DNA from: a phage
Length of the DNA stretch: 526 nt
Strand: one strand, 5' to 3'
Sequence record: EF517087.1
Position 1 is the stretch's first letter, and every line of letters begins with the position of its first letter. Of this stretch, positions 1 to 526 are shown piece after piece. Both the position numbers and the translations under genes were made by a program. The notes under the pieces were generated by a model. The model did not search any database. It had not been told where the DNA came from and saw only the letters and a list, made by a program, of their open reading frames with translations.

Positions 1-238
1 GGAAGGGGCTAGTCCGGTTAAACAGGTTGCTGGCAGTCTAGCTGGTCTGGCTGGTGGTACTGGTGAAGCACAGATGGTGGAAATACCACAAGCTGTCGCA
101 CAGATTGTTGACGTACCTGAGAAAGAGGTTTCCACTGAGGACGAAGCACAGACAGAAAGCGGACGCAAGAAAGCTCGTGCTGGCGGTAAGAAATCCTTGA
201 GTGTAGCCCGTAGTTCCGGTGGCGGTATCAACATTTAA
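1..238 (+). CDS. 3' end of a CDS (5' end outside the window) encoding a small Gly/Ala-rich protein with an acidic middle and a basic C-terminal tail; possibly a phage virion/head-associated small protein
   Basis: Frame 2 is open from position 2 to TAA at 236-238. Translation: EGASPVKQVAGSLAGLAGGTGEAQMVEIPQAVAQIVDVPEKEVSTEDEAQTESGRKKARAGGKKSLSVARSSGGGINI*. Codon choice is typical of well-expressed enterobacterial/phage genes (GGT Gly, CGT Arg, GCT Ala). The stop lies 13 nt before the next start, a compact operon arrangement. An in-frame ATG at 74-76 preceded by GGTGA (62-66) could be the true start, but the frame stays open to the window edge, so this is unresolved. Product identity is from memory of T7-like small basic proteins (gp6.7-like), not from a search. 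Confidence 0.6.
   Translation, partial: EGASPVKQVAGSLAGLAGGTGEAQMVEIPQAVAQIVDVPEKEVSTEDEAQTESGRKKARAGGKKSLSVARSSGGGINI
50..57 (+). other. Perfect Chi octamer 5'-GCTGGTGG-3' (E. coli-type RecBCD crossover hotspot), inside the upstream CDS
   Basis: Exact match to GCTGGTGG at 50-57 on the + strand, with a one-mismatch variant GATGGTGG at 73-80. Both arise from GCT/GGT/GGT Ala-Gly-Gly codons. Function depends on the host being an enterobacterium with E. coli-type Chi specificity, which cannot be established from the sequence. Confidence 0.3.
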
Positions 239-240
239 TC

Positions 241-246
241 AGGAGG
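241..246 (+). promoter_or_regulatory. Shine-Dalgarno ribosome-binding site (AGGAGG) for the downstream HNH gene
   Basis: Perfect AGGAGG at 241-246, followed by a 5-nt spacer (TTATC) and GTG at 252-254. It sits 2 nt after the upstream TAA stop, consistent with translational coupling or re-initiation. Confidence 0.75.
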
Positions 247-251
247 TTATC

Positions 252-526
252 GTGGAAGACTGCATTGAATGGATCGGAGGTGTCAACTCTAAGGGTTATG
301 GTCGTAAGTGGGTTAATGGTAAATTTGTGACTCCACATAGACACATCTATGAGGAGACATATGGTCCAGTTCCAACAGGAATTGTGGTGATGCATATTTG
401 CGATAACCCTAGGTGCTATAACATAAAGCACCTTACGCTTGGAACTCCAAAGGATAATTTCGAGGACATGGTTACCAAAGGTAGACAGGCTAAAGAAAAG
501 GAACTAAGCAAGAAACTTACAGAGTC
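252..526 (+). CDS. HNH family endonuclease (His-Me finger nuclease), N-terminal ~91 aa; 3' end outside the window
   Basis: GTG start at 252 with a strong upstream SD; frame 3 is open to the window end. Translation: MEDCIEWIGGVNSKGYGRKWVNGKFVTPHRHIYEETYGPVPTGIVVMHICDNPRCYNIKHLTLGTPKDNFEDMVTKGRQAKEKELSKKLTE… This carries the classic phage HNH signature: C-x2-W-x-G…N-x-K-G-Y-G (N-terminal Cys/zinc-finger half), H-R-x-x-Y-E…G-P-x-P-x-G, and the catalytic core V-x-H-x-C-D-N-x-x-C-x-N-x-x-H-L-x-x-G-T-x-x-x-N (H393-395, C399-401, D402-404, N405-407, C414-416, N420-422, H429-431, N456-458). A Lys-rich segment (KGRQAKEKELSKKL) follows the core and may be a DNA-binding extension. Confidence 0.85.
   Translation, partial: MEDCIEWIGGVNSKGYGRKWVNGKFVTPHRHIYEETYGPVPTGIVVMHICDNPRCYNIKHLTLGTPKDNFEDMVTKGRQAKEKELSKKLTE

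Follow-up and report, generated by a model that had tools for sequence, protein, structure and literature searches.

Neither gene 7.7 of bacteriophage T7 nor the class to which it belongs is new. The gene lies in the order 7 - 7.3 - 7.7 - 8 (portal) - 9 - 10A, and its product (gp7.7, 130 aa) is named 'HNH endonuclease' in recent T7 records. T7 encodes two further proteins of this type. gp2.8 is a full-length paralog of gp7.7 (49% identity) with the same HNH_3 plus helix-turn-helix architecture, and its gene is located between the single-strand-binding-protein gene 2.5 and the endonuclease gene 3 (L023 1859-2278). gp3.8, whose gene lies ahead of gene 4, has the HNH_3 core in common with gp7.7. 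The targets of gp2.8 and gp3.8 are presumably different from that of gp7.7. All three proteins have been treated as T7 homing endonucleases (bioRxiv 10.1101/2025.09.07.674715). A further candidate HNH paralog in T7, gp5.3, was rejected: BLASTP showed no similarity to gp7.7, and the protein is of the PD-(D/E)XK type.

Two other described systems are relevant to this locus. The homing endonuclease I-HmuI of Bacillus phage SPO1 (PDB 1u3e) is intron-encoded and has 174 aa with extra DNA-binding elements, whereas gp7.7 is free-standing and smaller, and sequence similarity between the two is undetectable by phmmer. In addition, the conserved Cys and His residues of gp7.7 suggest the presence of structural zinc, as in I-PpoI-like His-Me fingers and unlike I-HmuI. 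The second system comprises the terminase-associated HNH proteins of the HK97 gp74 and GVE2 type. gp7.7 resembles these in its HNH (His-Me finger) catalytic fold and in the location of its gene in the structural/packaging half of the genome. However, the gp7.7 gene is not beside the terminase, is not conserved among relatives and is dispensable, and its product belongs to a different HNH subfamily with an extra helix-turn-helix.

We analyzed a stretch of 526 nt (the window), which aligned over its full length with more than 100 T7 records at 97.7-97.9% nucleotide identity. The window derives from a T7 variant and covers two genes in part, 7.3 with its 3′ end and 7.7 with its first 91 codons; the latter is probably a free-standing homing-endonuclease gene, located before portal gene 8. 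Our analysis established the T7 7.7 identity of this gene, its family, insertion site, presence/absence among relatives and dispensability, and a one-sided block of linked differences in gene 8. Features of the window are listed in Table 1.

Table 1. Features located in the 526-nt window
Feature	Positions	Strand	Remarks
3′ part of gene 7.3 (tail / virion-assembly / host-range)	2..238	+	last 78 codons plus TAA at 236-238; from translation, Pfam and T7 alignment
Spacer, 13 nt	239..251	+	Shine-Dalgarno AGGAGGT at 241-247, 4-5 nt ahead of GTG
Gene 7.7, 5′ 275 nt (91 codons), HNH_3-type homing-endonuclease-like	252..526	+	from translation and T7 identity
Cys4 codon	261..263	+	invariant column; presumed structural zinc ligand
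HNH_3 (His-Me finger) core, residues 29-69	336..458	+	
H48 codon	393-395	+	within HNH_3 core
C50 codon	399-401	+	within HNH_3 core
C55 codon	414-416	+	within HNH_3 core
N57 codon	420-422	+	within HNH_3 core
H60 codon	429-431	+	within HNH_3 core
N69 codon	456-458	+	within HNH_3 core

Orthology to T7 gene 7.7 was evident from the nucleotide identity and from 7.3 as the upstream gene; the downstream side, where portal gene 8 is the immediate neighbor of 7.7 in T7, lies beyond the window end. The GTG start and ribosome-binding site are also the same as in T7. The reading frame is open from GTG 252 up to the window end, and T7 7.7, which has the identical GTG start, continues for 39 codons beyond this point. 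The window therefore holds the 5′ two-thirds of the gene, and the 3′ third, with the DNA-binding domain, is outside. An initial annotation, made from the letters of the window, had described an HNH gene that is tightly coupled to an upstream small-protein gene, has a consensus ribosome-binding site and starts 13 nt beyond the preceding stop. The coupling, the ribosome-binding site and the distance were all found as described, the length of the spacer following from the TAA of the upstream reading frame and the GTG at 252. The supposed small-protein gene is in fact the sequence for the C-terminal 78 residues of T7 gp7.3, and its product matched Pfam VirionAssem_T7 (E = 9.3e-46, profile positions 22-99 of 99). 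The middle of gene 7.3 (window ~60-100) is indel-rich and codes for an Ala/Pro/Gln-rich segment whose length varies among close relatives; the whole gene ranges from 270 to 321 nt among relatives, and conservation is high in every one of them over its final ~150 nt. A minus-strand reading frame at 228-431 (67 aa) is antisense to the conserved coding gene. An Rfam search of the window gave nothing at E <= 1, no terminator-like site was found in the window, and a scan of it for sigma-70-like promoters gave one match, no more than expected by chance.

The product encoded in the window matched Pfam HNH_3 (PF13392) over residues 29-69 with E = 3.2e-13 and 49.5 bits, well above the gathering score (curated cut-off) of 24.8 bits. 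It also matched PHROG HNH endonuclease families (best E = 5.6e-29). Residues C4, H48, C50, D51, N52, C55, H60, N69 and D72 are invariant among homologs, and all of them are present in the window copy. The catalytic His and the Asn/His metal-site residues are in place, and the fold is of the beta-beta-alpha type. The HNH core that the initial annotation had read from the sequence, the profile search that it had proposed (here significant on the window's 91 codons) and its statement that this is a known class of protein therefore all held, the class being the HNH_3 family and the gene T7 7.7. Residues C4, C50, C55 and H60 may form a structural zinc site, as judged from the Cys/His conservation and a weak, sub-threshold match of the window product to Pfam zf-His_Me_endon.

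The remainder of the protein was assessed in T7 gp7.7 and homologs. The C-terminus of T7 gp7.7 (~90-125), which lies outside the window, gave weak helix-turn-helix Pfam matches at residues 96-126. An AlphaFold model of a full-length homolog that is 93% identical (mean pLDDT 80.7) contains a strand-strand-helix core and, C-terminal to it, a three-helix bundle. The best structural match of the gp7.7-type protein was I-HmuI, and its C-terminal three-helix module matched the helix-turn-helix domains of Tc3, sigma region 4 and resolvase. T7 gp7.7 is thus a nuclease domain fused to a sequence-reading DNA-binding domain, with the C-terminal part beyond the window. A PDB sequence search with T7 gp7.7 (phmmer) found nothing meaningful (best E 0.87), and an NCBIfam search gave no match. 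Nuclease activity of gp7.7, the location of its target and homing itself are what we infer from these and the following data; a literature search found no experiment on DNA cleavage by gp7.7, on its site or on homing.

Comparison with relatives revealed that gene 7.7 is a presence/absence polymorphism. Six of the Teseptimavirus genomes examined are occupied, and the 7.3/8 junction is empty in 11 others (C2, JeanTinguely, CQ615, Yep_15, YpYeO9, Yanou, Pila, ESh3, 64795_ec1, CICC 80001 and PDP351P2), in which the 7.3 stop, AGGAGGTGACAC and the gene 8 ATG are joined directly. Two of these, Salmonella phage C2 and Escherichia phage JeanTinguely, are members of the T7 group (91-96% identity to T7 in the flanking genes) and have 14 nt between genes 7.3 and 8. 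Their junction reads TAA-TCAGGAGGTGACAC-ATG(gene 8), and the occupied junction of T7 and the window reads TAA-TCAGGAGGTTATC-GTG(7.7) ... TAATG(gene 8). It follows from these two arrangements that 7.7 is inserted exactly between the ribosome-binding site and the start codon of the portal gene. The Shine-Dalgarno sequence in the spacer serves portal gene 8 in relatives without 7.7 and gene 7.7 in T7. Phage T3 also lacks 7.7, and its 7.3 is joined to gene 8 via its own, different spacer. In addition, distant blastn searches gave a single contiguous 7.3-8 match in most sampled Studiervirinae.

This insertion pattern bears on the two roles that the initial annotation had left open, a free-standing homing endonuclease or a packaging-associated nuclease. 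In the latter case, gp7.7 would be a cofactor for terminase in the cutting of concatemers, and adjacency to the portal gene would reflect membership in the packaging module. We consider this extremely improbable and rejected it, since T7 is viable without 7.7, relatives lack the gene and the terminase genes are distant. A deposited T7 clone, T7_280L, is viable with 7.7 deleted from the start codon to 24 nt before the stop, and viable phages with 7.7 deleted or disrupted have been reported (PMC9825161, PMC12153263, bioRxiv 10.1101/2025.09.07.674715). At least 11 Teseptimavirus relatives, T3 and most Studiervirinae do without the gene; it is neither required for phage production nor conserved across relatives. 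It is also not adjacent to terminase genes or a cos site: terminase genes 18 and 19 are located at 36,554-39,131 in T7 and 7.7 at 19,849-20,241, more than 16 kb apart. Finally, gp7.7 is an HNH_3-subfamily protein with a helix-turn-helix at its C-terminus, and its fold is nearest to that of I-HmuI. The rule that a neighboring portal or terminase gene indicates packaging was thus misleading here, as gene 8 is indeed downstream and yet the packaging role is refuted. The homing role is favored because the test for presence/absence among relatives, which had also been proposed, was positive (at least 11 Teseptimavirus genomes, C2 and JeanTinguely among them, being empty), and it is further backed by divergence of alleles, the HNH plus helix-turn-helix architecture and the block in gene 8 described below.

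An insertion at this position separates gene 8 from its ribosome-binding site. Homologs of 7.7, including those of other genera, all end in T-W-R-H-(I/V)-stop (L001 6620-6646; L002 3080-3107; L005 3020-3050; L007, L008), and their stop overlaps the gene 8 start as TAATG or similar. In gene 7.7, the last codons are ..ACA TGG AGR CAY ATY TAA-TG, and in all these homologs the terminal codons provide a GGAG(R) Shine-Dalgarno sequence (ACATGGAGR) for gene 8. Given these terminal codons and the TAATG overlap, the inserted gene brings a replacement translation signal for gene 8. The engineered clone T7_280L retains exactly the last 24 nt of 7.7, with the gene 8 Shine-Dalgarno sequence. A different feature was observed in 7.7 of the HZ2R8/C5 type (L005 2640-2665 and 3020-3050; L009), which has an 11-nt direct repeat, GACACATGGAG, at both ends, with one copy at the gene start (GGTGACACATGGAGAAT) and the other near the stop (GCGACACATGGAGGCAT). 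This repeat may be due to chance, or it may be a trace of the origin of the insertion.

We identified a block of differences in gene 8 linked to the presence of 7.7. A comparison of six genomes that have 7.7 and ten that do not yielded 22 fixed and 38 associated sites (Fisher p < 0.01), all within gene 8 nt 12-293. There was no fixed or associated site in gene 8 nt 301-1500, and none of the 278 variable sites in the 900 nt upstream was associated with 7.7 presence. Almost all fixed differences in gene 8 (20 of 22) are silent, and dS between haplotypes is 1.4-2.2 in this tract versus 0.13-0.32 in the remainder. Fixed silent differences are densest at gene 8 nt 12-27, where five silent changes distinguish GAGAAGCGTACAGGTCTAGCC of empty-site phages from GAGAAACGAACAGGACTTGCG of T7. 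Exact-pattern counts in IMG/VR showed the same association: empty sites occurred with haplotype B (empty-type) seven times and never with haplotype A (T7-type), and sites with 7.7 occurred with haplotype A five times and never with haplotype B. Seventeen diagnostic sites outside the search patterns gave the same A/B split. The IMG/VR sample is not independent, because several contigs are GenBank isolates. The T7-type silent pattern at the gene 8 start was also checked in ST31 and fPS-89, which were too diverged to inform.

The one-sided block, which begins at the insertion point and stops abruptly, is consistent with co-conversion or with an 'immune' target allele, as far as a correlation in a small, non-independent sample with one exception can indicate; since the genomes are phylogenetically non-independent, shared ancestry or linkage could account for part of the association. 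The exception is PDP351P2 (OZ035763; L013 2200-2530), the only genome found to combine an empty junction with the 7.7-linked gene 8 haplotype (nt 1-295). It could represent a precise loss of the nuclease gene or a resistant allele that was never invaded. ATGG microhomology at both ends would permit such a precise loss. Another variant was observed in Bas102 (L010), which has an HZ2R8-type 7.7 (92% aa identity) and, in gene 8 nt 1-300, a third, partly recombinant haplotype with dS of 0.8-1.1 to other phages with 7.7. Bas102 suggests that the right-hand boundary of the linked tract is variable.

A homing cycle at this junction would proceed as follows. Gene 7.7, having been inserted between the ribosome-binding site and the ATG of gene 8, would use the captured site for its own translation. 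After coinfection of one cell by T7 and a relative without 7.7, gp7.7 would bind the empty allele via its helix-turn-helix and nick or cut it, most probably in the first ~300 bp of gene 8. Repair by recombination with the genome that has 7.7 would then transfer the gene along with the neighboring 5′ tract of gene 8, and the silent changes in the copied tract might protect it against cleavage.

Phylogeny of 7.7 is decoupled from that of its flanks. Between 13a and T7, flanks are 92-96% identical at the nucleotide level and 7.7 is 60% identical (51% at the aa level); between HZ2R8 and T7, flanks are 92-93% identical and 7.7 is 69% identical. YpP-R and T7 are 90% identical in 7.3 and about 100% identical in 7.7. 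At least four allele classes occur at this one site (T7; HZ2R8/C5/Bas102; 13a; a metagenomic contig). They are 44-73% identical at the aa level with mostly saturated dS, and the backbones bearing them have gene 8 dS of about 0.1-0.4. Homologs that are ~45% identical are present at the 7.3/8 junction in Kayfunavirus ST31 and Helsettvirus fPS-89. The family is also found at many other loci: full-length gp7.7 homologs were detected in 1111 phage records of unrelated taxa, with many different loci and neighbors, and a profile search found 266,024 cluster representatives at E <= 0.001. The top profile matches (P0009-P0157) were proteins of 230-677 aa with 2-7 tandem HNH_3 plus helix-turn-helix modules, which may be genuine multi-module nucleases, or artifacts of gene calling in which neighboring nuclease genes were fused.

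Divergence among the 7.7 alleles far exceeds that of the gene 8 tract that they share, which is not accounted for by one simple homing history. We tentatively raise the possibility that the 7.3/8 junction of T7-like phages is a homing-endonuclease turnover site, at which at least four anciently diverged 7.7 alleles have successively replaced each other while sharing one ~295-bp 'immune' allele of the gene 8 5′ end.

Wild-type T7 has also been reported to outcompete a mutant without 2.8, 3.8 and 7.7 only when the GAPS4 defense system is active, and GAPS4 is reportedly still blocked by catalytically dead T7 gp3.8 (bioRxiv 10.1101/2025.09.07.674715). These data, together with the finding that 7.7 is intact in all natural T7-type genomes examined, point to another explanation, in which gp7.7 is a retained or domesticated nuclease-like DNA-binding protein that is kept for a benefit to the phage and not for its self-copying, either by attenuating a host defense able to sense DNA breaks or by harming phages that compete with it. 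We regard this as unlikely to be the main reason for the presence of 7.7. The competition experiment used the joint mutant, in which the share of 7.7 itself is not separated, and the sporadic distribution, allele turnover and linked flank are marks of a mobile gene and not of one conserved because it benefits its host. However, homing and a phage-benefit role are not mutually exclusive; since the triple mutant loses only under GAPS4, such a benefit may help retain 2.8, 3.8 and 7.7.

The window copy of 7.7 has some unusual changes. It differs from T7 at 12 nucleotides (positions 11, 35, 83, 96, 214, 274, 324, 341, 398, 460, 496 and 498); 11 of these differences are G:C>A:T transitions and eight alter an amino acid. 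At ten of the 12 positions, every alignable relative has the T7 base. C>A at 11, the one change that is not a transition of this kind, is also present in a laboratory T7 stock (MZ375247), and a mutagenized T7 isolate, K (AY264775), has a similar transition-rich pattern in the same stretch. The exact variant sequence of the window was absent from IMG/VR, species-representative genomes and JGI metagenomes in exact-match scans. Judged from this pattern, the ~2% difference looks like that of a chemically mutagenized, deaminase-exposed or mutation-accumulation T7 line and not like natural divergence.

In gp7.7, 86 of the 91 residues are identical to T7, the changes being T8I, L25F, S70F, G82E and E83K. 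S70F adjoins the conserved N69, and G82E is located at a nearly invariant Gly. With these two among the five changes and the 3′ third of the gene unseen, the window copy may be impaired. An extreme form of this idea is that 7.7, at least in the window, is a decaying, inactive relic whose reading frame persists only for the gene 8 ribosome-binding site at its 3′ end. Five amino-acid changes in 91 residues from an apparently mutagenic process, the placement of two of them and the precise retention of the last 24 nt in the engineered deletion clone would fit such a relic. It nevertheless appears improbable to us: the window copy retains every invariant catalytic and Cys/His residue, its reading frame is open to the window end, and natural alleles, despite their deep divergence, are full length, keep both domains and have dN well below dS.

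Gene 7.7 as a free-standing homing-endonuclease gene thus remains our preferred reading. As 7.7 is a known, annotated and non-essential gene of the best-studied podophage, the window itself adds little. It does illustrate that a portal-adjacent HNH gene is not necessarily a packaging factor, and that presence/absence among relatives and deletion data decide this question. If the 7.3/8 junction is indeed a turnover site, the mobile unit and selective target would be the nuclease gene plus a silent-site-recoded piece of an essential structural gene, and T7 would offer a tractable system for studies of nuclease-driven mosaicism and phage-phage interference.
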